Below the pieces are notes generated by a model. The model saw only the letters and a list, made by a program, of their open reading frames with translations, searched no databases and was not told where the DNA came from. A program made the position numbers and the translations under genes. A DNA stretch of 64,000 nt from Candidatus Moraniibacteriota bacterium (lineage in GTDB: Bacteria > Patescibacteriota > Minisyncoccia > Moranbacterales > UBA1568). Where the stretch lies: NCBI GenBank assembly GCA_016699875.1, contig CP064989.1, positions 456,788 through 520,787 on the forward strand, given 5' to 3'. Positions 1 to 44,829 of the stretch are shown piece after piece. Position 1 is the stretch's first letter. Each line of letters starts with the position of its first letter.

Positions 1-3000
1 AAGAGTGGCAAACACAAACACATATCTCTTCCGAGCCAAGTGATAGGTGACGATAATAGTTGAAAGCGTAAAGAACGCGATAGCAACAGCATATATCGGG
101 AGAAAGGGCAAGACGGCCGATATTTTCTCGCCAAAGAGAAATTTCGAGAACACTCCGTCAAAAAATCCCAGGAGCAAAACACTCCCGGCAACAACAATTG
201 AAGAAAGCCCGTAGATAATCCAGAATACTTTCTTCGTTCCCTTCCCGAGCCCGCGATTCCTCCCCACAAATGTCACCATGAACATATTCGGCATGGTGCC
301 GAGAAAGAAAATCACTTTGCCGACCAGCGAGAGAAGCGCATACTCCCCGGCACCGCGTTCAGACATGAAGTGCTTTGCCAGAAGCACATCCACTGTGGTA
401 AACATCGCCGTCGAAACCGTTACTAAGATCGCCGCGGAAAAGAACTCTATCGGAAAAGATCGCGACTGCGGGTCGCGAATCAAAGATCTTCCCGCACCGG
501 GAATGAGGAAAAAAGATAAGAATGCGGCAAAGACCACACTTGCCGGTATAGAAAGATATGCATATTCACTTGAACCAAAGAATACAAATCCTAAAGCAAA
601 AACTAACTTACTCCCAGCTTCGATAAGAGAGAGAATCGCCGCAGCTCGAAAACGAAGAGATCCCTGCAGATATCCGAAATTCCCGAATGCCAGAAGTCCG
701 CCTGCGAGAAGCGGCGTAAAAGAAAGCAGAAGCAATGCGTCAGCAACGTGAAAAAACCGAGAAAGTGCCGGAACAGCAAAAAGCCAGAGTGCGGTCACAA
801 AGACAGAAGCGATCAAGCCTATCCGCATGACAGACGCCCAAAAAGTAAGCGCTTCCTTTTCTCCACTTCTCGCAGAGAGATAAGAAACCTCACGATTGAT
901 CGTGGTAGCGAATGGACTGATGAAAACCAATGCAAGATACCAGAGCGTATTCAAAAGTGCAACCATTCCAAGCACCTCAAACGACAACACTCGCCCCAGA
1001 AACGCATTGAATGCAAAATTCAAAATATTGGAAAGAAAGGTGGCCACCACAAAGAGCCCCTCCGCAGAAATCGCGAATGCGATCAGTATCTTTGAGTACG
1101 CACCGGAGGAAATCCCCCGCGATATACGATCAATAAATTGAGACTTCGCAGAAATCCCAGGAACAAACCAAGAGAAACGATTCTGAATTCCCAGGACACG
1201 CTTGTTCCAAGGTGATACGCTCGCGCTTATTGGCAACACGCTGCCCGGCAGATTAGCAGCATCTTCCGGAGAAGCTTTTTTCGAAACCGCATCGACTGGC
1301 TTCTTCTTTCGCTTCAAGAGATGAAGTCCGTGCGTCGTCTTCTCCCAATAGTGCGGCTTCACAAAGAGCTGATATGCCGCCATAACCGCCGCCACCGATA
1401 CCAAGAGCCAATAGAATGGAATCAAGAATACCCACTTCATCAGTTCCCATTTTTCCCGTTTTGCGCAACCGATCATGTAGTAGTACATCGCCAGGAAATT
1501 CCCGAAGATAAGCGAGACTATCGCCATATAGAAGATTGCCGGAGGATAGAGTGCCTCGATGGTCGGACCAACTATTGATCTCAGAGAAAAATACAGAATC
1601 GTCTGAAGCCACAAGATCGGGTTAATAAGCATGAACGCGATTTTCCCGCCGACAATAAACTGGAAAAGCAGCGCGTGAATGCCATTGTCTCGGAAAAATT
1701 TCAGCGGATGCCGCATGTGGACCAAATACGTCTGCATGTATCCCTTAATCCACCGCGATCGCTGGCGAATCCAGTTCCCGACTTTGCTGTTCGCCTCTTC
1801 AAGCGTTACCGAGTCGATAATGGATGTCCGATGTCCGCGCGTGAAAATCCGCGCTCCCAAATCGCAGTCTTCCGTCACATTGAAGGGGTCCCATCCTTCA
1901 AGCGAGAGAAGATCTTCCCGCCGGAAATGATTGCTCGTCCCTCCGAGCGGGATGGACGTCGCGACCGACTGCAAGCCCGGAAGCGTCACATCGAACCACA
2001 GCGAGTATTCCGCCGTGAAAAGCCGGGTCAGAATATTCTGATCGGAGTTGAAATAGTTGAGCTTCGCCTGAAGACACCACACATCGCGCGAGAGGGTTTG
2101 AAAACCGAGATACGCTTTCTTGAGCTGGAGCGGATCAGGAATATCTTCCGCATCGTAGATCACAACATACTCGCCGCGCGTCATCGAAAGACCGTAATTG
2201 CACGCTTTCGGCTTCGTCTTCGGTTCGGAGTGCGGCACCACCACTACGCGCACGAAAGACGGGAGATTCATATCCGTCGCCGCTTGTATCGTTTCCTGGT
2301 CGTTTTCTTCGAGAAGAAGCAGCGCTTCGAGTTTCTCTTTCGGCCAGTCGATTTTCCCAATCGCCTCGAGGAATCCGGGAAGAATATGCGCCTCGCGATA
2401 GAGCGGACAAAGTATGGAATACATCGGGAGATCCTCATCGCGCAGCGCGGCGAGTTCTTTGTCCGAAAAAGAAACTTCCGGTGGCCGTTTAAGACTCCGC
2501 ACCACGAAGAAAGCATTGAACAACACATCGAAGAAATAGATGCTTGTCAGCACCGCTGTCGCCGCAACCAGTGTCGACATCGGACGAACAAAGATGCCGA
2601 CCAAAAGCGCGAGCACAATGCCGGCGAGAACTATTCGCTGCCACGGCATAAACGTGTGAAGTGCCGAGGCATGATGCGGCAGTGTCGAGTGCGTCACGAA
2701 CCGCTTGCGCCGATGGGCAACGCCCGCGCCAATCATGCCGGATACCTTCCCGGCGCCAGCTCCCTCCGGATGGATGTGAAGCGGCTGCCGTTCCCGGAAA
2801 CGCAGCTTCAGAGCATTCCACCCGATTTCTCGAATCGCCTTCCAGAAAACAATTTTCGATTCTCCCGACTTCCGCTCCGCAAACACGATAGAATGTCCGC
2901 CTATTTCATAGCCGTAATTCCGCGCCGTCAGCAAAAACTCGAGATCGAATGTCCATGGATCCGGAGTAATCTTCACTTCGCGAGCGATACGCGCACGAAA

Positions 3001-3822: not shown

Positions 3823-5760
3823 TTATCGAATATCGCGGAAACTTTTCGTGAACGGCCGCTTAAAAAAGAGCACCCACAAATGGTTCACGGTATACACGGA
3901 TGCAGCACGAAACACGCCCTCGCGATTCAATCGGCGTCCCGATGTCCGCATCGGAAGAGAAAAGGTGAATCGAACACGCCCCTCCTTCTGAATACGGCGT
4001 GCAATATCCGTATCCTCTCCAAAAAAAGTGATAGTAACATCAAACCCGCCTATTTTTTCCAGAGCTGACCGTCTCAACACAAAGTTTCCACCTTGAATCA
4101 GCGCGCCCGATCGAAGCACGTGATGATTGAATAAATGAAAGAGAAAACCCGCCGAATAGTAGAGCCGTATGAAGAAATTCGTCACCGGCGAAATATCATA
4201 ATAAATGTATGGGCCGCTCAATGCCACTAAATTATTCTTCCTTGCAAACTCAGCCAAGACCCGATCAATCCACCCCTTCGGTATCAGAGAGTCCGCGTCG
4301 ATATTGGCGATAAGAGCGCCTCTCGACGCGAGGAATCCGGCCTGTCGTGCTCGAGAGAGACCCTTTTGCCATTCGTCTACGACGACAACTCCGGGAAACC
4401 AAAGCGCAATCTCCCGCGTTCGATCCGTACTCGCGTTGTTCACCACGATCACTTCGATACTCCGGCGACTCTCACTCACTCTCTGCAAGACCGTCCGAAG
4501 CGTTGTCTCAAGAAATTTCTCCTCATTGTATGCGGGAATGACAATACTGAGAACCGGCTCACCTGTCTCGGACACTTCTCCCAGAATCGTTCGGAATATT
4601 CGCTCCCATTCATTCGCAACCGCCGATGCGGAAAACTCGCGCACAAAGTTTCTCCCGTTCTCACCAAGCCGCATCATCTCTTCCGGATAAGAAAAAAGAT
4701 AGACCATTCTCTCCGCAAGACCAGCCGTATCGCCGGGAGCAACAATAAACCCGGCATTCTTTGGTACGTATTCCGGCAACCCATACGCATCCGCGGCAAT
4801 CACCGGCAATCCCGAAGCAAACGCATGCATCATGCTAAGGCACTGCGTCTCCGCTGTACTCATCACCGTAAAAATATCCGCCGCCCGATACACGTCGGAA
4901 AATTCCTCGCACTCCAAATAACCCAGAAAATGCACGCTTTCCTCTATGCCAAGCTTCTTTGCCAATTGTCGAAGCGACGGCTCGGCAGAGCCATGACCGG
5001 TAATGGCACACGAGATATCCGGAATCGATTTCTTAGCAATCGCCATCGCTCGAAGCACGACATCGATATTCTTTTCCTGCGCAAGCCGACCCGTGTAAAG
5101 AAGCGCATGTTCGGACAATCCGAATTTTTTCTTCAGTGCGACCTTTTCATCCGGAGAACCGCTTGAAGAAAAATCCGAAAGCTCCAACGGATTGGAAAGC
5201 ACGCGCGACTTCGAGCGAAAACCAAACGATTCCATTTCAGAGAGAAGCGCGCGGCACGGCGCACTTACGAAGACACAGTGCCGATAATACCAGTTCACAT
5301 ATTTCATCCCGGCGTTCTCGAGTCGCTTCCATCGGACCGGCGCATACTTGAGAAATTCGAGAAGCGGCGTGTGATTCGTTCCGACAATCATCTTTTTGAG
5401 AAGCTTCGATAGAAGAAGCGCTTCGAGTCCGGCGCCGAAGAAGAGCTGCGTATATATAATATCCGGATCAAATCTTTTGATATGCCGATAACTCGAAAGT
5501 ATCGGGAGTACGAGCCGCCCCTGCTTGGTCGGAGCCGCTTTGTACGGAAGTGAGAACAGTCGAAAAATTTCGATATTCTCGCCGAGATCCAATTCGCGAA
5601 ACGGCAATTTCGAAACAGCAAAATCGCGCCGCGAGTACCGCGGGACATAAAAAACGATTTTGTGTCCGCGTGCCGCGAGCTCCCTCGCGAGAGAGATAAT
5701 GGAATCGGATATCCCGCTCATCTCCGGATAGAAGTTGTCCGAAAATATCGCGATTTTCAT
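3823..5760 (-). CDS. Bifunctional glycosyltransferase: N-terminal GT4 (GT-B fold), C-terminal GT2 (GT-A, ...VLSIVIPAYNEEKFLETTLRTV...)
   Basis: ORF track frame 3823..5805. Start refined to MKIAIFSDNFYPEMSGISD at 5760 with GAGGTGA RBS 7 nt upstream. GT4 and GT2 signature stretches seen. Confidence 0.75.
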   Translation of the reverse strand: MKIAIFSDNFYPEMSGISDSIISLARELAARGHKIVFYVPRYSRRDFAVSKLPFRELDLGENIEIFRLFSLPYKAAPTKQGRLVLPILSSYRHIKRFDPDIIYTQLFFGAGLEALLLSKLLKKMIVGTNHTPLLEFLKYAPVRWKRLENAGMKYVNWYYRHCVFVSAPCRALLSEMESFGFRSKSRVLSNPLELSDFSSSGSPDEKVALKKKFGLSEHALLYTGRLAQEKNIDVVLRAMAIAKKSIPDISCAITGHGSAEPSLRQLAKKLGIEESVHFLGYLECEEFSDVYRAADIFTVMSTAETQCLSMMHAFASGLPVIAADAYGLPEYVPKNAGFIVAPGDTAGLAERMVYLFSYPEEMMRLGENGRNFVREFSASAVANEWERIFRTILGEVSETGEPVLSIVIPAYNEEKFLETTLRTVLQRVSESRRSIEVIVVNNASTDRTREIALWFPGVVVVDEWQKGLSRARQAGFLASRGALIANIDADSLIPKGWIDRVLAEFARKNNLVALSGPYIYYDISPVTNFFIRLYYSAGFLFHLFNHHVLRSGALIQGGNFVLRRSALEKIGGFDVTITFFGEDTDIARRIQKEGRVRFTFSLPMRTSGRRLNREGVFRAASVYTVNHLWVLFFKRPFTKSFRDIR

Positions 5761-5777: not shown

Positions 5778-8129
5778 TCAGTCCCGCTCCCCGCGAGCAA
5801 ACCAACGCGCAAGAACATATTGGAGAAGCGTATAGACGAATAATACCAAAGAAAACCTGACTGAGGCATCAGGAGAAATCGGCGGAATATCGATTTCAAA
5901 GAATCGCAAAACCAACGGGACATGAAGAGCTATCGGAAGCAATATCGCCTCGAAGAGCGCGAGCAGTACCAAATCTCTCATCTCCGAAGGCGCGAGCTTT
6001 CCCCGGAAAACCCTCGGGACAAAGAGGAAGAAAATAAATCCCAAAATAAGCGAAGCCAGAACGATGAGGAAATTCGACGGCGAATTTTTCAGCTGTTCGC
6101 CACTCAGAGCAAAGATAAATCCCAGAGCAACCGCCTGCAGCAATGACGACGAGACTACGAAAGGAAGTACTTTTCTCAAGAAATTTCCCGCATGCGCAGC
6201 AACTGCTTTCCCTGCCGGACGGATCGTCCAGTATGAGATAAGAATACTCGGGAAGCCGATAGTAAAATAATTGATAAGCGTCATATTGAGCGGCGTGAGC
6301 GGAAAGGCGTAGCCCAAAATACTGACCCACACGAAGAGAAAAAATCCCGTAAATGAAAAACTGAAAAAGATGCTTGCAAAAATCTCCGCGTTTTTGATAA
6401 TGCTGTCCGCCAATTCCACGCCGCCCGGAAGCGCCGTGAAACTATTGTTTGTCAACACAATCGAAGCAACCTGACGTGTCGCCGGAGCACCTTCAAACAT
6501 CGCGATACCGAGATCCGATTTCTTGAGCGCCAAAGCATCGTTCGCGCCGTCGCCCACCATCGCCGTAAATCCATCGTCTTTCAACGCTTCAACAATCCGC
6601 TCTTTCTGCTCGGGAAATATTCGCGCAAAAATAGTCGTATTCCGCACGCGATCTCCGAATTCTTCCTCTGTCCACTGATCGATATCCGCACCCGAGACCA
6701 CGCTGTCGGTTTCAAGAACACCTGCCGACCGAGCAATGGCCCGTACCGTCTCCGCATGATCGCCCGAGAGGATGCGAATACGCACTCCACGCTTCTGAAA
6801 GAACTCGATTGCTTCACGGATGCCCGGACGAAGCCGGCTCGAGAGAACGAAAACGCCGAGCAGAGAAAGTTTCGACTGCGCGATATCCTGAGGAATACCC
6901 ATACCATCCGAAAGGGCGATACAAAGAAGCCGATTCCCCTCACGAGCTTCCCGAGACAGGATGTCCTGCAGCCACGATTGTTCCGATGCGGCAATGAGCT
7001 GCGGGATCATTACTTCGGCAGCTCCCACCACGAGCACCATCGTATCTCCCGATACATCCCTAAATGACACTGCACCAAACCGACGCCACGAAGAGAAAGG
7101 CAGTCCATCAATTTTAACCCCCTTGAAAGAGTCATTGGTAAGAAGCTTCCGTACAGCAAGAGCGGTCTGAGATGTGTCATTTGTCCCATCAAGATATGCC
7201 GTCATGTATTCGAACGACTTCGCCTCCGGCGCACCGTCAACAGACAAAAACCGCTCCGCCGTGAGCCCGTTCTCACAAAGCGTTCCCGTCTTGTCCAGGC
7301 AGAGATTCTTGATACGCCCGAGTTTCTCCGTCGCATTCACTTCCTGCAGAAGCACGTGCCGGCGAAAAAGATGCGCCGCTCCATAAGCGAAGAGAAGCGT
7401 CATGCCGAATGCCAACCCCTGCGCCACGATCACGCTCGCGAGCGCGCCGACATGCTTCACGATATTCACATTCGACTCATGTGCCATGACACCGCGAAGA
7501 ACCGCAAAAGCAATGACAACGACCAGTACATACCCGGAATATCGGATCACCATATTGACCGACTTCTGTATCGGACTCTCGGCAACCGATGATCGCTGCA
7601 CTCCCTCCGTCATACGCGCAATGCGACTCTCGGCAAACACCGTCTCCGCCCGCATCAGACCGGCACCGGAGGTAATAATGCTTCCCGCAAGCACCCGCTC
7701 CCCCGCTCCGCGCGGCAACGATGTCGACTCGCCCGTAATAAGCCCCTCATTCAGCTCAAGTGATTCCGACGATACCAATACGCCGTCACACGGTATCTGA
7801 TCGCCCAAGCCGAGACGAAGCATATCTCCCTTCCGAACATCTTCCGTAAGAACGGATTCCTCGACACCGTCGCGAATACGATTCACATGCGGCGCCGTCA
7901 AAAGCTGGAGCTTTTCAAGCGCGCGCCACGCACGAATATCCTGTCCGAGACCAAGCAGCATATTGATCACGGTCACCAGCCCCAAGAACAATCCTGCCTG
8001 CCGATCACCAAATACAAAGAGAAGCGCCACGACTGTCAGGATAACGCCGTTTGTCAAAAGGAATACATTCCTCGATACGATATACCACAAATCCCGAATT
8101 TTTTTCACGCGCGGTGTCAGCATAAGCAC
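5778..8129 (-). CDS. P-type cation-transporting ATPase (P2-like; short N-terminus starting near TM1)
   Basis: Motifs ITGES (A-domain), CLDKTGTLCENG (DKTGT phosphorylation site), MVGDGANDALALKKSDLGIAM (hinge), multiple TM helices. 783 aa. Confidence 0.9.
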   Translation of the reverse strand: MLMLTPRVKKIRDLWYIVSRNVFLLTNGVILTVVALLFVFGDRQAGLFLGLVTVINMLLGLGQDIRAWRALEKLQLLTAPHVNRIRDGVEESVLTEDVRKGDMLRLGLGDQIPCDGVLVSSESLELNEGLITGESTSLPRGAGERVLAGSIITSGAGLMRAETVFAESRIARMTEGVQRSSVAESPIQKSVNMVIRYSGYVLVVVIAFAVLRGVMAHESNVNIVKHVGALASVIVAQGLAFGMTLLFAYGAAHLFRRHVLLQEVNATEKLGRIKNLCLDKTGTLCENGLTAERFLSVDGAPEAKSFEYMTAYLDGTNDTSQTALAVRKLLTNDSFKGVKIDGLPFSSWRRFGAVSFRDVSGDTMVLVVGAAEVMIPQLIAASEQSWLQDILSREAREGNRLLCIALSDGMGIPQDIAQSKLSLLGVFVLSSRLRPGIREAIEFFQKRGVRIRILSGDHAETVRAIARSAGVLETDSVVSGADIDQWTEEEFGDRVRNTTIFARIFPEQKERIVEALKDDGFTAMVGDGANDALALKKSDLGIAMFEGAPATRQVASIVLTNNSFTALPGGVELADSIIKNAEIFASIFFSFSFTGFFLFVWVSILGYAFPLTPLNMTLINYFTIGFPSILISYWTIRPAGKAVAAHAGNFLRKVLPFVVSSSLLQAVALGFIFALSGEQLKNSPSNFLIVLASLILGFIFFLFVPRVFRGKLAPSEMRDLVLLALFEAILLPIALHVPLVLRFFEIDIPPISPDASVRFSLVLFVYTLLQYVLARWFARGERD

Positions 8130-36272: not shown

Positions 36273-38276
36273 TTATTTCTTCTTTTTCTTTTTCGATTTT
36301 TTTATATCAGTCTTTTTCATATCAATCGACGTATCATCTGATATATTTTTCCCGAATCGTTCCGCAAGCGCATGAATATCTGTCGGAATCGGATCATAGG
36401 AAGCAAATGATTCTGCTGGCAATCGATCCATCACTCGATCGAGAAAATCACGCCATATGGGCGCCGCCGCAAAAACACCGTCTGCGCCGTATCGAAGCGG
36501 CGAATTATCATTATTCCCCGCCCACACCGCGACTGCGATCGACGGCGTATATCCAACCGTCCAGGCATCATGAAAATCCTGCGTCGTCCCCGTCTTTGCC
36601 GCAACCGTTCCTTTCGGGAAAGCAAGTGGACTATTCGCACCGAATATGGGGGCACGAAGCGAATTATCCGAGAGGATCGTATTGATACGTCTCGCAATCT
36701 CCGTATTCAAGACGCGCTTCTCCTGCACAGGGAATTCATCATGAATGGATCCGCCCACATTTTCCACAGAGAGAACAAGCCGATACTCACGGTGAATGCC
36801 TTCCGATGCAAACGTGGCAAACGCACTCGCCATATCCAAAGGCAACACTTCTGCACCACCGAGAACCAACGCGAGTCCATAGAGTCTTCCATCATCGAGT
36901 GTTGAAATACCAAGGCGTTGCGCGAGATCGATCACATTCGACACACCCGCAACCGCAAGCGTCTGGACAGCGGGAATATTCAGTGATTGCGGAAGCGCCT
37001 CTTTCATTGAGAGTGCGCCACGGTACTTTCCATCGTAATCCTTTGGCGTATAGTCCCGTCCGGATCCATCCGGACCGAAATTCGTTGGCACATCATAGAC
37101 CAGCGTCTCTGGCTGGTATCCCTCCTCGAAGGCTTTCGCATACACAAACGGTTTAAATGCCGATCCCGGTTGTCGCGGCCGCATCGTGACATTCACTGCG
37201 CCATCAATAGTCGTGTCAAAATAATCTCGGCTCCCCACCATGGACAGCACATCCCCAGTTGCCACATCAACCGCCACCAAAGATGCATTTTCCGCATCGT
37301 ACTTCGCATTTCTCTGAACACCATCTTCAACAGATTGCTCCGCGGCATCCTGCAGAGAGAGATCGATCGTCGTCCGGATACGCAAGCCTCGCGTTTCGAG
37401 GAATTCTCGACCGTACTGTTTCTCAAGCGCATCGATCACTGCAAAAACAAAGTGCGGCGCTCGAATCGACGCCTCGATCGGACGGAGCTTTGCAAACGTA
37501 TTCGCATCAATCGCCAGCTGAGCATCATACGCGCTCACAAATCCGTCTGACTCCATATATCGCAGTATCGACTCCTGCCGATCACGAAGGTCATCTCGAT
37601 GCGATCCGTACGGCGAATAGTGTGTCGTCGCCCGCGGAAGCGCCGCAAGAAATGCCGCTTCGTCGAGCGTCAATTCTTTTGCATGTTTTCCGAAGAACGA
37701 CTCCGCCGCCCGCTCGATGCCATACGCATTCGAACCGTATGGAACCGTATTGAGATACAAATCGAGAATCTGATCCTTCGAAAACGTCCGCTCGATTTTG
37801 AGAGCGAGTATCGCCTCACGTATTTTTCGCACAACCGTTTTCTCTCGCGAGAGAAAAGCGATGCGAGCCAGCTGCTGCGTTATCGTTGAAGCGCCTTGCT
37901 CGATATGTCCCGCCTGAAAATTCGCACGAAGCGCACGAACGATAGAAATCGGATCGACACCGAAGTTTCTATAGAATGACCGATCTTCTGCCGCTACCGT
38001 TGCAAATCGGACCGCATCGGGAATATCATCATGCCCTACGACGGTCCGATTTTCTTCTCCATGCAATTCGTAGAGCGGAATCTCTCCGGTACGATCCAAA
38101 ATAACCGATGTTTCCGCAAGCGGACGCTCAAGCAATTGAGACACATCCGTCTCATCGGAAAAATATATCGCCGAGAGCCCAAGCATTCCTCCGATTCCGA
38201 CAAGAAACACGATATAGGTACCCTCCCAGATAATCGAGAAAAAAGCGGAAGAAAGCTTCCGTATCCAGACATTCAT
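36273..38276 (-). CDS. Class A penicillin-binding protein (GT51 transglycosylase plus transpeptidase), C-terminal poly-Lys tail
   Basis: GT51 motifs EDRSFYRNFGVD, GASTITQQLAR, RKIREAILA. Transpeptidase SAFKPFVY (SxxK), SLN, KTGT. C-terminal KKSKKKKKK. Confidence 0.9.
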   Translation of the reverse strand: MNVWIRKLSSAFFSIIWEGTYIVFLVGIGGMLGLSAIYFSDETDVSQLLERPLAETSVILDRTGEIPLYELHGEENRTVVGHDDIPDAVRFATVAAEDRSFYRNFGVDPISIVRALRANFQAGHIEQGASTITQQLARIAFLSREKTVVRKIREAILALKIERTFSKDQILDLYLNTVPYGSNAYGIERAAESFFGKHAKELTLDEAAFLAALPRATTHYSPYGSHRDDLRDRQESILRYMESDGFVSAYDAQLAIDANTFAKLRPIEASIRAPHFVFAVIDALEKQYGREFLETRGLRIRTTIDLSLQDAAEQSVEDGVQRNAKYDAENASLVAVDVATGDVLSMVGSRDYFDTTIDGAVNVTMRPRQPGSAFKPFVYAKAFEEGYQPETLVYDVPTNFGPDGSGRDYTPKDYDGKYRGALSMKEALPQSLNIPAVQTLAVAGVSNVIDLAQRLGISTLDDGRLYGLALVLGGAEVLPLDMASAFATFASEGIHREYRLVLSVENVGGSIHDEFPVQEKRVLNTEIARRINTILSDNSLRAPIFGANSPLAFPKGTVAAKTGTTQDFHDAWTVGYTPSIAVAVWAGNNDNSPLRYGADGVFAAAPIWRDFLDRVMDRLPAESFASYDPIPTDIHALAERFGKNISDDTSIDMKKTDIKKSKKKKKK

Positions 38277-38348
38277 AAGCAGACACTTCGGAGAAAACAG
38301 TCGTTTTGAATACTTCAGTATAGGCGATTCACGCTGTGAAGGGAAATA

Positions 38349-38377
38349 TTGACACGCGTATTTTTTTGAGGTATACT
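38349..38377 (+). promoter_or_regulatory. Near-consensus sigma70-type promoter (TTGACA-17-TATACT)
   Basis: TTGACA at 38349..38354, 17-nt spacer, TATACT at 38372..38377. Drives a short leader and sORF on the plus strand. Confidence 0.5.
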
Positions 38378-38396
38378 AGAGTTGTTGGAAGATAGA

Positions 38397-38431
38397 AACG
38401 GGTGAGGTCGAAAGACCGCGCCCGTTTTTTG
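38397..38431 (+). terminator. Leader hairpin plus U-tract (attenuator-like) between promoter and sORF
   Basis: AACGGG-tga-GGTC-GAAA-GACC-gcg-CCCGTT followed by TTTTT, ~20 nt downstream of the predicted TSS and ~30 nt upstream of the sORF ATG. Confidence 0.5.
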
Positions 38432-38462
38432 TCTTCCGTCTTAATTCGTTAAGGTATGTCGT

Positions 38463-38642
38463 ATGGATGAAGAGATGAAGGAAGGTACGGAGGAATCCGC
38501 TTGCAACCATGAAGGCGGTTGCAACTGCGAAACACCCTCGACGTCCCAGAGCGGAGAGAGAGAAGAAATCGCACTCGCATTTCTTCTTGCCCTCATGCCA
38601 CTGGTTGTTCTCACCTTCTTCGGACAAGTCGGCCTCATATAA
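38463..38642 (+). CDS. sORF (59 aa): acidic Cys-motif N-terminus (CNHEGGCNC) plus C-terminal TM helix. Below the ORF-track size cutoff.
   Basis: ATG at 38463 with AAGG 7-8 nt upstream. MDEEMKEGTEESACNHEGGCNCETPSTSQSGEREEIALAFLLALMPLVVLTFFGQVGLI. Followed by a clean terminator at 38682..38707. Confidence 0.35.
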   Translation: MDEEMKEGTEESACNHEGGCNCETPSTSQSGEREEIALAFLLALMPLVVLTFFGQVGLI

Positions 38643-38681
38643 AATATAGCCGACTCTCCCCGAACTTTCCCCTTGCAAAAA

Positions 38682-38707
38682 ATCTCCCCGAAAGAGGAGA
38701 TTTTTTG
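38682..38707 (+). terminator. Intrinsic terminator after the sORF
   Basis: ATCTCC-ccgaaaga-GGAGAT followed by TTTTTT. Confidence 0.6.
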
Positions 38708-38825
38708 TTGAGACAATACATATCTCTTGGAATGCGTGCTAGACTATTTGGTAAGAAAAAGGCCTCACTCGTTTTATTGCAAGCAAGGCACATTTTTGAG
38801 ACAAACCTCAAGTAAGATGAGGTCA

Positions 38826-39404
38826 TTACCAGTGATATTGGATTGCTATTGCAGAATTGATTTCGCCACCATCGGAAAATGTCATACCCTGTATCGAGAT
38901 ATTCTCGCTAAGCGCATACTCAGCTCGAACGCCCGTGCCAAGAAACGCTTGATTAATCAACCCGAAATTCCATTCGGAATTGATGGCGTACGTCATCACT
39001 ACCTTGTGCCAACTATTGCCGGATTGCCCGACTTCGAAAATACCAAGAGCAAAAAACTTCTCTTTACTCAAAGCAACGTAACCAGCACGACGCAATGTCC
39101 ACGTATCTCCTGACCCAGGAACATGTTCAACGCCAGCAGCAATACCAAACTCAAAGGCGTTTACCCGAAAATGAGGTCCGGCATATATCTGCGCGTAACC
39201 ACCCTCAACCGCCTGTCCGAAAACATAATACCCGACAGCGCTATTCGATTGGCTCCATCCGGATACACCTCCCATAACCGATCTCGAGTAAACCCCTTTA
39301 GGATCCCGAGCTACGTCGAGCTCAAACCAACCTCCAGCAACGCACACCAATGGCAATAGCCACGAGGAAATTAGCGCAACCACCACGACAGTCTTTCGCT
39401 TCAT
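38826..39404 (-). CDS. Secreted beta-rich protein, possible small beta-barrel (signal peptide; alternating amphipathic strands; C-terminal ...IQYHW)
   Basis: Signal peptide MKRKTVVVVALISSWLLPLVCVAG, alternating hydrophobic patterns, aromatic C-terminus. Confidence 0.5.
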   Translation of the reverse strand: MKRKTVVVVALISSWLLPLVCVAGGWFELDVARDPKGVYSRSVMGGVSGWSQSNSAVGYYVFGQAVEGGYAQIYAGPHFRVNAFEFGIAAGVEHVPGSGDTWTLRRAGYVALSKEKFFALGIFEVGQSGNSWHKVVMTYAINSEWNFGLINQAFLGTGVRAEYALSENISIQGMTFSDGGEINSAIAIQYHW

Positions 39405-40291: not shown

Positions 40292-40789
40292 TCAATCTTC
40301 AAGTGCAACACCTGTTAATTCATAAAATACCTCATAAGGAGTCTTCCAGCCAAGGCGTTTTCTCGGTCTTGAATTGAGGAGATGCTCAACCCTTCGTATC
40401 TCCTCATCGGAGACGATACGAAAGTCCGTTTTCTTCGGGAAGAATCGTCGAATAAGTCCGTTGAGGTTTTCGTTCGATCCCCGTTCCCAGGAATGGTAGG
40501 CGTGAGCGAAGAAACAACGGATGTCGAGTTCCTTTTCAAGTTCCTCGTATCCGAGATTCTCGCTTCCACGATCACGAGTGAGGGTTTTTCGTACGTGTTT
40601 TGGCAGTATGCCGAGTCGTTTCCGAGTTATCCGATTCGCTTCTTTCATAGTCCGACTCTTCGTTCTCTCAATGAGTACTACTCCGGAAACCCGTTCGTTC
40701 GTAGTTCGAAGGCGGACAGGGTTCGTCGGGGAGGAAACAATGGAATCATCTTCCCAGTGACCAATCTCTTTCCGTGCTTCAACGGTCAT
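40292..40789 (-). pseudogene. IS30-family transposase remnant (C-terminal DDE catalytic half only)
   Basis: GHWEDDSIV (HWEGD-like), DRGSEN, HAYHSWERGSNENLNGLIRRFFPKKTDF (IS30 C-terminal signature). Only ~165 aa, N-terminal HTH half missing. Followed by an AT-rich junk region at 40800..40960. Confidence 0.7.
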
Positions 40790-41003: not shown

Positions 41004-41897
41004 CTACTGCACAAGGAAGCCAGACACCGAACCGAAGCCACGGCAAGGAAAAACAACGGCATTTGCATCAAACCTAACCTCACCACCGTCAAAGTCGAGA
41101 CAGGGACACCCGGGAAAGTCACCATTAGCATTTGGAGAGAACTCGTCACCGGAGCAGTTCATATTCAGTTCTGCCCAGCGAGCAAGCCGTTCGGGATGAG
41201 TCAGAACAATGGAACAGACCGCGAGACTTCCGAGATCAAACTCGTTGGCTGCGAAGACCTTGCGAGCCCGACGAACGGACTTGCCGCGATGGCGCATGCC
41301 GAGCTGGGCGGCGACGATCAGGATGTCGCCCTTCTGCGTTTCGGTGAGAGACGCCAGCGCGTGCGCCGTGCGAGCATGAACCCGAAACTGCGCCGGCGTG
41401 ATCTGTCCATCGCGGTAGTTGTAGAACGGCCGGGAGGCCGCGATCTTGGCATGGACGAGCTGGACCGCCTGGCAGCACATCTCCGCCGGATCGGTCACTT
41501 TAGGGAAATGCTTCTTGGCCAGCGCTTCAACGGACGGGATGGCAAACCATCCTTCGGCACTGTCAGGGAGTGCAGGTAAGTTATTGGCGAACTCGAGAGC
41601 GCTCGCCGGATCGAGATCGAAGATCTTGGCGATTACATTAATCTGATCCGCGATCAGCTCGGGTCCTTTGTATGCCTCCGGGTACGTGTAGCTGGAATAA
41701 AGTTCCTCGTCGGCGTACTGGTTGGACATGGTCAGCTCAGTGATGAGCTTCGCGATCCCGTCCTGCAGTTCGCCACCGCGCTCGTTAAGCCGCTGTGCGC
41801 GCACATCGTCGAGCTCGGACTTGTCGTAGGCGGCCTTGAAGAGACCGACTGCGTGGAGACCTTTCGAGTCTCGGCTGGTGATCAATGTCTGTGACAT
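41004..41897 (-). CDS. Hypothetical protein, compositionally foreign (GC clearly higher than surroundings); Cys-rich C-terminus (CSGDEF...GCPCLDFDGGE...FPCRGFG)
   Basis: ORF track frame. Start refined to MSQTLITS with AAGGAGG RBS. Local GC ~60% against a ~50% background. Confidence 0.5.
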   Translation of the reverse strand: MSQTLITSRDSKGLHAVGLFKAAYDKSELDDVRAQRLNERGGELQDGIAKLITELTMSNQYADEELYSSYTYPEAYKGPELIADQINVIAKIFDLDPASALEFANNLPALPDSAEGWFAIPSVEALAKKHFPKVTDPAEMCCQAVQLVHAKIAASRPFYNYRDGQITPAQFRVHARTAHALASLTETQKGDILIVAAQLGMRHRGKSVRRARKVFAANEFDLGSLAVCSIVLTHPERLARWAELNMNCSGDEFSPNANGDFPGCPCLDFDGGEVRFDANAVVFPCRGFGSVSGFLVQ

Positions 41898-41957
41898 CGT
41901 CATCCTCCTTCTTTCTTTAAGTTTGCCGGGGTCGTTCCGGCTAACGACTTCCTCTGC

Positions 41958-42011
41958 ATGAGGTAGCGCGCTAGGCATAAAAACTGTCTTACGCCCAATG
42001 CGCTACCTCAT
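41958..42011. promoter_or_regulatory. 12-bp perfect inverted repeat (ATGAGGTAGCGC ... GCGCTACCTCAT, 30-nt spacer) upstream of the GC-rich gene
   Basis: Read directly. Located 60-110 nt upstream of start 41897 on the minus strand. Confidence 0.4.
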
Positions 42012-43962: not shown

Positions 43963-44514
43963 CTACCTCGAGAACTTCCCAGCATAGTACGAAACATCAG
44001 AAACCCACTTTTCCTCAGACGCATCAAGCGGCGAACTCAGAAACCCTCGCTTCCACACAATCAACTCCCGAGGCGTATCAAGTCCTTGATCCGCAATGAG
44101 TGTCCGCAGCCTCAAGCCCACCACGGAAACCGCTTCCTGTGGCGATGAGAAACAGCTATATCCGGAATCCGTTGCATTCTCCGGTCCGCGATATCCCCAA
44201 TAATTAAAGCAGTCTCGTCCGTCCTTCCATGGCGCATTCACTCCCCAATTACTCTCTTTTTTTGCAATAGCAACGAGGAAAACGGCAACCTTGCGATCCT
44301 GTTCCAGGAGAGACGGAACCATCCTCCGCATCGGATATCCGAAAACCAAAGCCCGTAGTTTGAGTTCAAAGAAACTTTTCGGAAAACGCATGCTGGCAAC
44401 CTCGTCGGAAACCTGCTTGCCAAATGACACCAGAAACACCGCCACGCCGAGCGACAAGAAAAGAATCACTGCCAAAAAAATATGCCCTTGATCAGAGTGT
44501 CGGAAAAATGTCAT
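43963..44514 (-). CDS. Membrane-anchored hypothetical protein, possible lysozyme-like/transglycosylase-like (RPF-like) domain
   Basis: TM anchor. AKKESNWGVNAPW...NYWGYRG is loosely similar to the ESGGNW...GYYGGLQF transglycosylase-like pattern. Weak. Confidence 0.4.
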   Translation of the reverse strand: MTFFRHSDQGHIFLAVILFLSLGVAVFLVSFGKQVSDEVASMRFPKSFFELKLRALVFGYPMRRMVPSLLEQDRKVAVFLVAIAKKESNWGVNAPWKDGRDCFNYWGYRGPENATDSGYSCFSSPQEAVSVVGLRLRTLIADQGLDTPRELIVWKRGFLSSPLDASEEKWVSDVSYYAGKFSR

Positions 44515-44614
44515 CGAGAAGCGAGGTTTTATTTTTGGCACACGAGGTCTACAAAAAATAACGCCGCCTCTGCAGAACGGAGGGCTTCACCACAAAAAGA
44601 ACTCCGCGAAAACA

Positions 44615-44688
44615 TGGAGCGAGAGACGGGAATCGAACCCGCATATCTAGCTTGGAAGGCTAGCGTACTACCACTGTACTACTCTCGC
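44615..44688 (-). tRNA. tRNA-Gly (anticodon UCC) with encoded CCA
   Basis: Hand-folded: acceptor GCGAGAG/CUCUCGC, D-arm GUAC-AGUGGUA-GUAC, anticodon stem CUAGC/GCUAG with loop CUUCCAA, T-arm GCGGG-UUCGAUU-CCCGU, discriminator U, CCA. 74 nt. Confidence 0.85.
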
Positions 44689-44829
44689 ATATTTAACCAA
44701 TCAAAGCCCGACATTCCATCCCAAACAGAGACAAGTACCTCCCCATATCTCTTACCTGTCAATTCCTCATCCGAACTGTGCCGACAGTATATCGTCTGAC
44801 AAACCGTATTGTAAAGACCTTCCGCAGAA

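Follow-up and report, generated by a model that had tools for sequence, protein, structure and literature searches.

A 64-kb stretch of DNA from a Candidatus Moraniibacteriota bacterium (hereafter the window, by whose positions all features of the locus are numbered) carries, upstream of its PBP1A gene, a small open reading frame (sORF) for a conserved 59-amino-acid membrane protein. This sORF is headed by a near-consensus promoter and by a leader RNA that looks like an intrinsic terminator. The pattern of synonymous codons in relatives leaves us nearly certain that the sORF is a genuine protein-coding gene, and we consider it highly likely that the leader is a functional RNA of the plus strand. 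We propose that a strong promoter runs into an attenuator of the terminator type, that a factor sets the degree of read-through and that read-through yields a tail-anchored microprotein. For this scheme as a whole the case is about evenly balanced, and attenuation as the leader's mode of action is plausible, if just short of an even call. The locus lies in a gap of 549 bp, given as about 550 bp in a preliminary description of the same DNA, between PBP1A (36273..38276, minus strand; Transgly and Transpeptidase domains by Pfam) and another minus-strand gene (38826..39404). Promoter, hairpin, a short A/U-rich stretch, the 59-codon frame and an A6-stem-T6 terminator follow each other in this gap (Table 1), and conservation in relatives shows that the arrangement is not due to chance.

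The sORF product reads MDEEMKEGTEESACNHEGGCNCETPSTSQSGEREEIALAFLLALMPLVVLTFFGQVGLI, with the CNHEGGCNC motif at residues 14-22 and one helix, as the preliminary description had it. Among 5.8 billion proteins searched we found 33 homologues (56-101 aa, 45-98% identity), all of them unnamed or annotated as 'hypothetical'; those that come with an organism name are from Candidatus Moranbacteria or Patescibacteria. Scanning one genome per species located 29 loci with a homologue, and a profile search of 1.84 billion representative proteins matched 67 clusters, nearly all of 46-112 aa, so that the look into relatives which had been recommended earlier finds the reading frame conserved. The 29 loci belong to metagenome-assembled genomes (MAGs) of Moranbacteria or Patescibacteria, except for seven labelled 'uncultured Bdellovibrionales'. 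Loci under that label (L008, L010, L011, L014, L016 and L018 among them) are syntenic with Moranbacteria loci, and the labels are probably taxonomic misassignments. Three MAGs hold two paralogous microprotein genes on different contigs (L026/L030, L031/L035 and L029/L034), with the leader at each. Evidence for a coding gene comes from the last 27 codons of 30 distinct loci. Invariant alanine, glycine, proline and leucine residues use all of their synonymous codons there, invariant residues are encoded by 2-5 different codons, and the entropy at the three codon positions is 0.64, 0.20 and 1.51. Such a pattern indicates purifying selection at the protein level and therefore excludes an element that acts only as RNA. 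The context of the start codon, M-[DET]-E, is conserved as well.

In the family alignment (A1) a variable, acidic N-terminal part is followed by the invariant C-terminal sequence AFLLAL[MT]PLVVLTFFGQ[VA]GL[IL], and distant members retain EE-x-x-[LF]-AFLLAL-x-P-x4-T-x-FG-[QN]-x-GL-x-stop. AlphaFold, supplied with the family alignment, models one helix only, at residues 32-56 (pLDDT 62), and leaves the N-terminal part disordered. One C-terminal transmembrane helix (32-56 of 59) and the lack of an N-terminal signal peptide are what is expected of a tail-anchored protein, and we assign the product to this class on the strength of the model. In sequence searches, no entry of Pfam, NCBIfam or PDB matched the microprotein or its family above threshold. 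Across 121 distinct members the net charge of the N-terminal part averages -5.7; at least two cysteines are present in 112 of them, CxxC in 64 and no cysteine at all in 8. The exact CNHEGGCNC motif is limited to the sub-clade of the window, while distant members have CxxC, CxCx4CxH or CxHC. It is the form that a loosely conserved Cys/His cluster takes in this sub-clade. Two such N-terminal parts in a dimer could together provide four metal ligands, and it is reasonable to guess at thiol or metal chemistry on the membrane surface. Of the attenuation-controlled, metal-binding membrane micro-protein that had been envisaged before, the conserved coding gene with a terminator-like leader is the best supported reading, and metal binding is suggested only. 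The near-invariance of the helix, in which Pro, Thr, Gly-Gln and Gly-Leu keep fixed positions, speaks for a specific partner within the membrane.

The promoter, TTGACA-17-TATACT, matches 11 of 12 consensus positions and is the top-scoring site of a 2-kb scan. We retrieved 30 orthologous loci by protein, not RNA, similarity (alignment A2), and in 27 of them a 29-nt string TTGAC-N18-TATA[CA]T occupies the equivalent place, in full agreement with the promoter described earlier. The transcription start site (TSS) probably lies at about 38384, because apparently leaderless genes in the window show a gap of about 7 nt between the -10 box and the ATG. Many long open reading frames of the window have TATA[AC]T about 7 nt before their ATG and no Shine-Dalgarno (SD) sequence, for example 36236(-), 15675(-), 30903(-) and 60641(-). 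An SD-like 4-mer is present at only 6 of 35 gene starts in the window, where it is a canonical GGAGG or GAGGTGA. The genome thus appears to rely heavily on leaderless mRNAs, and an 80-nt structured leader in front of an sORF is conspicuous for this reason. A TATACT box also lies on the minus strand about 40 nt upstream of the PBP1A ATG, back-to-back with the -35 region of the sORF (38277-38350), which suggests that PBP1A and the sORF have divergent promoters sharing about 70 bp.

The predicted transcript folds almost at once into a long hairpin, which reads GGAAGAUAGAAACGGGUG-A-GGUC-GAAA-GACC-G-CGCCCG-U6-GUCUUCC. Here GGAAGAUAGAAACGGGUG pairs with CGCCCGUUUUUUGUCUUCC and encloses the inner GGUC-GAAA-GACC stem-loop. 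The fold of the 79-nt leader reaches -36 kcal/mol compared to -17.2 +/- 2.8 kcal/mol in shuffled sequences (z -6.75), and 0 of 200 shuffles were as good. A hairpin with a GAAA cap and a U-run had been recognized before; the U-run consists of six and not five residues, and the stem extends further than described, with the A-run and purine-rich 5' flank paired to the U-run and pyrimidine-rich 3' flank. By its anatomy the element looks like an intrinsic terminator in the position of a leader attenuator. A GC-rich stem-loop is followed immediately by a U-tract, and the hairpin stands between the -10 box, which ends at 38377, and the ATG at 38463; the order of promoter, hairpin and ATG is the same in 30 of 30 loci, with the TSS placed by prediction. 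The pre-start region 38440..38462 holds no strong SD sequence. A motif UAA..UAA[CG] recurs at this place in relatives, with a T at position -1 in 29 of 30.

Conservation of the leader is strong and of a particular kind. In every locus (30/30) GGGTG starts 22-24 nt beyond the -10 box and forms part of the 5' arm of a hairpin whose 3' end is CCCGU plus a U-run. The spacer between hairpin and ATG differs in length among loci (about 25 to 150 nt). The alignment of these loci shows no change in CGGGTG or in one C of the 3' arm. A further alignment (A3) holds 48 distinct metagenome sequences aligned with a covariance model; the core pairs CG, GC and GC stay the same in 47-48 of them, CGGGTG having been demanded by the retrieval pattern itself. 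The inner stem covaries in sequence and length (GGUC/GACC, GGCC/GGUC, GUCCUC/GAGGAC or CCCC/GGGG) and is absent in some relatives, for example CGGGUGACUCACCCG, so that the GNRA cap is incidental. For the outer part we wrote out a helix of 20 pairs, from the 5' flank to past the U-run, and scored it on both alignments. Cells are paired in 83% (A2) and 87% (A3) of cases. Shuffling gave 76.8 +/- 1.0% for A2, with 0 of 500 shuffles reaching the real value, and 80% for A3, and sliding the helix lowered the figures to 45-61% and 44-60%. Pairs changed on both sides number 11 in A2 and 10 in A3, and distal pairs in A3 swap clearly, for example UA 18 / AU 12 and GC 17 / AU 12. Distal flanks form better duplexes with their own partners than with those of other loci (-4.97 vs -2.97 kcal/mol; 0/2000 permutations). 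The covariation check proposed in the preliminary description is thus positive for the outer helix, and the parallel Rfam check gave no match. Rfam 15 was searched with both gathering and permissive thresholds: tRNAs alone reach the cut-off in the window, the best local matches at the leader are terminator look-alikes far below it, and four related loci gave nothing. Literature searches found no description of the leader or of the microprotein family.

Further observations speak for an RNA read in one direction. The plus-strand RNA folds more stably than the minus-strand RNA in 77 of 79 cases (-20.9 vs -15.5 kcal/mol), which identifies the plus-strand transcript as the functional molecule. In A3, the three A-U pairs that adjoin the core are never U-A or G-C. 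Standard pairs at the six positions closest to the core (columns 14-94 to 22-86) have U as their 3' base, a few G-C excepted, and A or G as their 5' base. A fixed U on the 3' side with A/G drift on the 5' side fits the U-tract of a terminator and not a mere helix. A covariance model built from sORF leaders only (R1) scores the window leader at 54.1 bits (E 3e-11) as its sole significant match, and pattern scans likewise find the CGGGTG leader element only once in 64 kb. The leader hairpin is probably an undescribed gene-control element. Other identities were considered and set aside. That CGGG...CCCG is simply the usual terminator of this genome was tested and ruled out, the element being different from the standard terminator. 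A DNA operator (palindrome ACGGG..CCCGT) is rejected because the half-site spacing ranges from 3 to 30 nt, and an RNase III site was set aside because the stems of short leader variants have only about 10-13 bp.

Table 1. Features of the sORF locus in the window (strand: + plus,. none assigned)
Feature	Position	Strand	Basis and remarks
-35 hexamer TTGACA	38349..38354	+	consensus scan; TTGAC at constant spacing in 27/30 orthologous loci
-10 hexamer TATACT	38372..38377	+	consensus scan and conservation in relatives; predicted TSS ~38384
Long leader hairpin, purine-rich 5' strand and U/C-rich 3' strand; core is a terminator-like stem with U6	38387..38437	+	fold, covariance model, pair counts
CGGGTG (CGGGUG in RNA), 5' arm	38399..38404	+	30/30 loci found via protein
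Inner stem-loop GGUC-GAAA-GACC (GNRA cap)	38406..38417	+	variable in relatives, neither loop nor stem conserved
U-tract T6 directly 3' of the GC-rich stem	38425..38430	+	3' partner always U in relatives, 5' partner A or G
A/U-rich pre-start region with small hairpin CUUAA-UUCG-UUAAG; motif UAA-N4-UAAG	38440..38462	+	folds, relatives
sORF, 59 codons and stop, predicted tail-anchored microprotein	38463..38642	+	homologues, synonymous-codon pattern
Codons for CNHEGGCNC (residues 14-22)	38502..38528	+	only C22 invariant in alignment A1
Codons for invariant membrane segment AFLLALMPLVVLTFFGQVGLI (residues 39-59)	38577..38639	+	alignment A1, AlphaFold helix, synonymous codons
Stem-loop GTCGGC...GCCGAC enclosing the stop codon	38629..38655	+	folds; kept in clade relatives
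Terminator A6-TCTCC(CCGAAAGA)GGAGA-T6, A- and T-runs on both sides	38677..38706	.	sequence scan, folds

How might such a locus work? The near-consensus housekeeping promoter would initiate RNA at about 38384, and a GC-clamped hairpin with its U-tract would form within about 50 nt, an anatomy read from sequence, fold and conservation. Most transcripts would then terminate by default at about 38430. Expression of the 59-aa protein would require read-through, since in the window clade the ATG follows the U-run after only about 33 nt, in our judgment too short a distance for a second promoter. Read-through may be conditional and might be set by a putative trans-acting protein or RNA that reads the CGGGUG arm and the junction of the U.G pair and the first loop G. 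In the read-through RNA the purine-rich 5' end would pair with the pyrimidine-rich stretch past the U-tract, which would bury the 5' end in a helix of about 24 bp and probably protect the mRNA. The predicted product is an acidic, disordered N-terminal part of about 35 aa, usually with 2-4 Cys/His, joined to the nearly invariant C-terminal transmembrane helix.

The leader is not confined to the sORF. R1 finds second and third copies on sORF contigs, each with its own promoter and CGGGTGA. They lie directly upstream of a GH73-like membrane protein in eight loci (L004, L014, L016, L018, L020, L036, L121, L133) and upstream of a CAP/YkwD protein in L121. The GH73-like protein has about 200 aa, an N-terminal membrane anchor, a conserved AIAKKESNWG...NYWGYRG domain and sub-threshold similarity to GH73 glucosaminidase and FlgJ muramidase. 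On L121, a metagenome contig of 6.6 kb, CGGGTG leaders with promoters at 2311-2381(+), 5262-5350(-) and 6068-6129(-) serve the sORF, the CAP/YkwD protein and the GH73-like membrane protein, with a sortase gene between them. The window homologue of the GH73-like gene (43969..44508, minus strand; 60% identity to that of L001) lacks a CGGGTG leader; it follows tRNA-Gly(tcc) and two hairpin/T-run elements (44560-44690). A DNA pattern of promoter, CGGGTG and CCGTNTTT retrieved at least 120 metagenome loci. The sORF stands 172-411 nt downstream in 84 of the 120 matches listed, a ratio that is biased because the pattern was derived from sORF leaders. Most other listed matches have a gene at 7-50 nt, encoding CAP, MurA, two kinds of Fe-alcohol dehydrogenase, very large secreted proteins or unknowns. 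These non-sORF matches share the A-run and the A after CGGGTG, and several pass R1 at E < 1e-3. As a group they lack complementarity of the distal flanks, and some may for that reason be unrelated. Since the leader precedes other, mostly envelope-related genes, the sORF probably belongs to a small co-regulated set. The locus had been called a 'self-contained' unit; this describes the monocistronic gene, which stands alone with its own promoter and terminator, but not the leader, which is common to other genes and is an element of a regulon.

Several points weigh against an attenuator that governs a microprotein of the envelope. Termination, the start site and read-through are all deduced from sequence. 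The invariant GC core next to the U-tract could partly reflect selection for a strong terminator hairpin and not recognition by a factor. The outer helix forms in the read-through RNA only, and a pure stability element at the 5' end would account for it equally well. No alternative (antiterminator) fold of the leader could be drawn, as its folds give one hairpin only, and no candidate gene for an effector emerged. The switch, if real, therefore needs a trans-acting partner. On the side of the protein, the members without cysteine weaken any obligatory metal or thiol role, and the cytoplasmic Fe-alcohol dehydrogenases among the leader-bearing genes leave the theme of an envelope regulon incomplete.

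A pure stability element is the alternative that survives best, although we consider it rather unlikely. The hairpin would act as a 5'-terminal stabilizer or expression cassette that shields highly expressed mRNAs from RNases dependent on the 5' end, with a U-run that merely pairs with the A-run and causes little termination. This would explain why the helix begins about 3 nt from the predicted 5' end and runs past the U-tract, and why distal pairs covary that can matter only in full-length RNA. It would also suit a module that precedes functionally unrelated genes, Fe-alcohol dehydrogenase and MurA included, and whose promoter is near-consensus everywhere. However, a pure helix should allow A-U to change to U-A or G-C next to the core, where the 3' side stays U with A or G as 5' partner, and the GC core never flips. 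Moreover, the leader hairpin is stronger than the gene's own 3' terminator, and RNA polymerase should therefore terminate at it by ordinary rules.

If termination is taken at face value, the main product might instead be the hairpin RNA of about 45-50 nt (38384 to about 38430), which could for example titrate a CGGGUG-binding protein, with the sORF expressed from rare read-through. A consensus promoter followed at once by a strong terminator, an invariant sequence inside the terminated product and the recurrence of the module before several genes are in line with this. Yet a coding gene in the same orientation always follows the module directly, the distal covarying pairs fall outside the terminated RNA, and a fully paired hairpin exposes little single-stranded surface; we regard this explanation as improbable. 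In its strict form, a small RNA as the sole product of the locus, it had been offered earlier and fails, given a reading frame under strong purifying selection that begins about 33 nt beyond the U-run. A short terminated RNA as a by-product beside the sORF mRNA is possible.

The symmetric look of A-run and T-run, together with minus-strand neighbors on both sides in the window and in many loci, might point to a two-way terminator or insulator that chiefly halts antisense RNA of the minus strand before the divergent PBP1A promoter region. We think this very improbable. The minus-strand RNA is the worse folder in nearly all cases because G.U pairs become C.A mismatches, and the T-run of that strand is short and interrupted. 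It would also stay unexplained why the plus-strand promoter lies at a constant distance and why the element occurs under any orientation of its neighbors, and transcripts from the convergent gene would already meet two other minus-strand terminators before they reach the site. The type-I-toxin-like element that had also been entertained, a membrane-damaging peptide silenced by its structured 5' untranslated region and an antisense RNA, accounts for a small hydrophobic protein, a highly structured leader and a stand-alone transcription unit, but it can be given next to no credence: a consensus scan, which a weak promoter could escape, finds no minus-strand promoter-like site at 38376-38720, the helix is nearly invariant over a phylum-level group under strong purifying selection, the helix is preceded by an acidic, Cys-bearing domain of some 35 aa, an unusual feature for such toxins, the leader also serves ordinary enzymes, and the locus is syntenic within clades with a distribution that looks vertical, mostly with one copy per contig, where type I toxins are patchy and fast-evolving.

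Returning to the attenuator, one may ask how far it extends. The CGGGUG terminator-leader might define a new class of antitermination switch that depends on a trans-acting factor and controls a small, mainly envelope-related regulon in Moranbacteria and other Patescibacteria. Besides the GH73-like hydrolase, CAP/YkwD, MurA and surface proteins, this regulon would include the microprotein, as the most constant of its members. We offer this extension as a tentative idea that is on balance unlikely. The genes that share the leader (wall hydrolase, CAP, MurA) and the adjacency of PBP1A point only loosely to a role of the microprotein in the cell envelope. In a variant that senses ribosomes, the factor could be the ribosome itself. 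The arm GGGUGA is SD-like, and the canonical GAGGUGA serves as SD in the window; the 3' tail of 16S rRNA in free ribosomal subunits could thus bind the arm and compete with folding of the terminator. If true, envelope genes would be coupled to ribosome availability.

The locus is of wider interest because Patescibacteria (Candidate Phyla Radiation, CPR) are uncultivated, have reduced genomes and are almost uncharted in their gene regulation. If the leader is a regulated terminator, it offers a testable entry into gene control in CPR and a marker of co-regulated envelope functions, as a compact RNA element of invariant sequence that is absent from Rfam and reused before several envelope genes. 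The microprotein family, conserved and absent from Pfam, NCBIfam and PDB, has a helix that implies a conserved membrane partner. It is also an example of how cut-offs on the size of open reading frames conceal core genes in CPR genomes.

The surroundings of the gene contribute less. In most loci both neighbors lie on the opposite strand, and their identity differs by clade. The order in the window clade is DUF475/TerC, then PBP1A, then the divergent sORF; in other clades a peptidyl-prolyl isomerase is divergent from the sORF, and in L003 the sORF, DUF475 and a P-type ATPase follow in order on one strand. The DUF475/TerC link is confined to the window clade and L003. A link to P-type ATPases was dropped as weak, because the ATPase of the window shows only 25% identity and lies about 30 kb off, and because 'cluster 4' is heterogeneous. 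We rate all these neighborhood links (PBP1A, DUF475/TerC, P-type ATPases) as weak and clade-level. An exact-protein look-up of the window PBP1A returned no record. Downstream of a methyltransferase gene, the window holds open reading frames at 40292-40789(-) (165 aa) and 41004-41978(-) (324 aa) with no Pfam match; the former had been likened by eye to an integrase or transposase core fragment, which the Pfam scan did not confirm.

At the 3' end, a stop codon followed by a hairpin and T-run is found in at least 21 of 30 loci. The intrinsic terminator of the earlier account is present as described, at 38677-38706 with A- and T-runs on both sides. Its sequence AAAAAATCTCCCCGAAAGAGGAGATTTTTT is identical in L001, L008 and L012, whose sORF proteins are only 67-74% identical to that of the window, a conservation that appears unusually strong for a terminator. 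The stem-loop around the stop codon shows a compensatory change from C-G to U-A in L012.

Leaders in which a promoter is followed by a terminator hairpin with U-tract and then by the gene are well known from Bacillus and E. coli, where trp/TRAP, pyr/PyrR and the ribonucleic antiterminators (RAT) of the bgl-sac/BglG-LicT systems share this order with the locus described here. As in those leaders, conserved sequence covers the 5' arm of the terminator, and the leader is reused at several transcription units. In the known attenuators the protein has been identified, and the RNA either adopts a defined antiterminator fold or carries repeated binding triplets. The Moranbacteria leader differs in being a single hairpin with no alternative fold and no Rfam match. 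Riboswitches of the thiS/HMP-PP type that reside in terminator stems are likewise very small, look like terminators and have invariant nucleotides in the left arm. In contrast, minimal variants of the leader consist of a 5-bp stem, a 4-nt loop and A/U runs, with no conserved unpaired pocket seen, and we judge them too small to form a selective ligand pocket. The boxB of lambda nut (GCCCU-GAAAA-AGGGC) is a short promoter-proximal hairpin too, and the leader similarly fixes the closing U pair and the first G of the loop (CGGGU-G...). However, boxB is not itself a terminator, is borne by a phage and works with boxA and Nus factors. The leader is terminator-like, the window is chromosomal (PBP1A, threonyl-tRNA synthetase, tRNAs), and a boxA/Nus arrangement was not found in it. 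The stabilizer stem-loops of ompA and aprE resemble the leader in having a helix within a few nucleotides of the 5' end, which is a predicted one here. To our knowledge these stabilizer leaders carry no conserved U-tract or invariant sequence.

For the protein, the closest parallels are single-helix regulators such as MgrB, MgtS, AcrZ, KdpF and phospholamban/sarcolipin. Like the microprotein they have 50-65 aa and a single transmembrane helix as the conserved part, and MgrB relies on Cys residues outside the helix; the sequences are not similar. A conserved helix of this kind implies that the microprotein binds some larger protein of the membrane. A CxxC knuckle followed by a hydrophobic membrane segment is shared with the LITAF-like zinc ribbon (PF10601), which gave weak sub-threshold matches in 5 of 34 members (best E 0.0025) and no match to the window protein. 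The microprotein ends with the helix and therefore lacks the second knuckle (HxCxxC), which in the zinc ribbon follows the hydrophobic segment. A zinc-binding anti-sigma factor (ZAS) has an H-x3-C-x2-C motif and an adjacent sigma factor gene. This identity was rejected, as the window protein has H-x3-C-x-C and relatives do not keep the motif; no sigma gene was seen among the neighbors viewed, and no sigma domain among the neighbors scanned with Pfam. Among the RNA and protein families tested, none described so far includes the locus, and in its features it resembles a leader attenuator joined to a single-helix microprotein.

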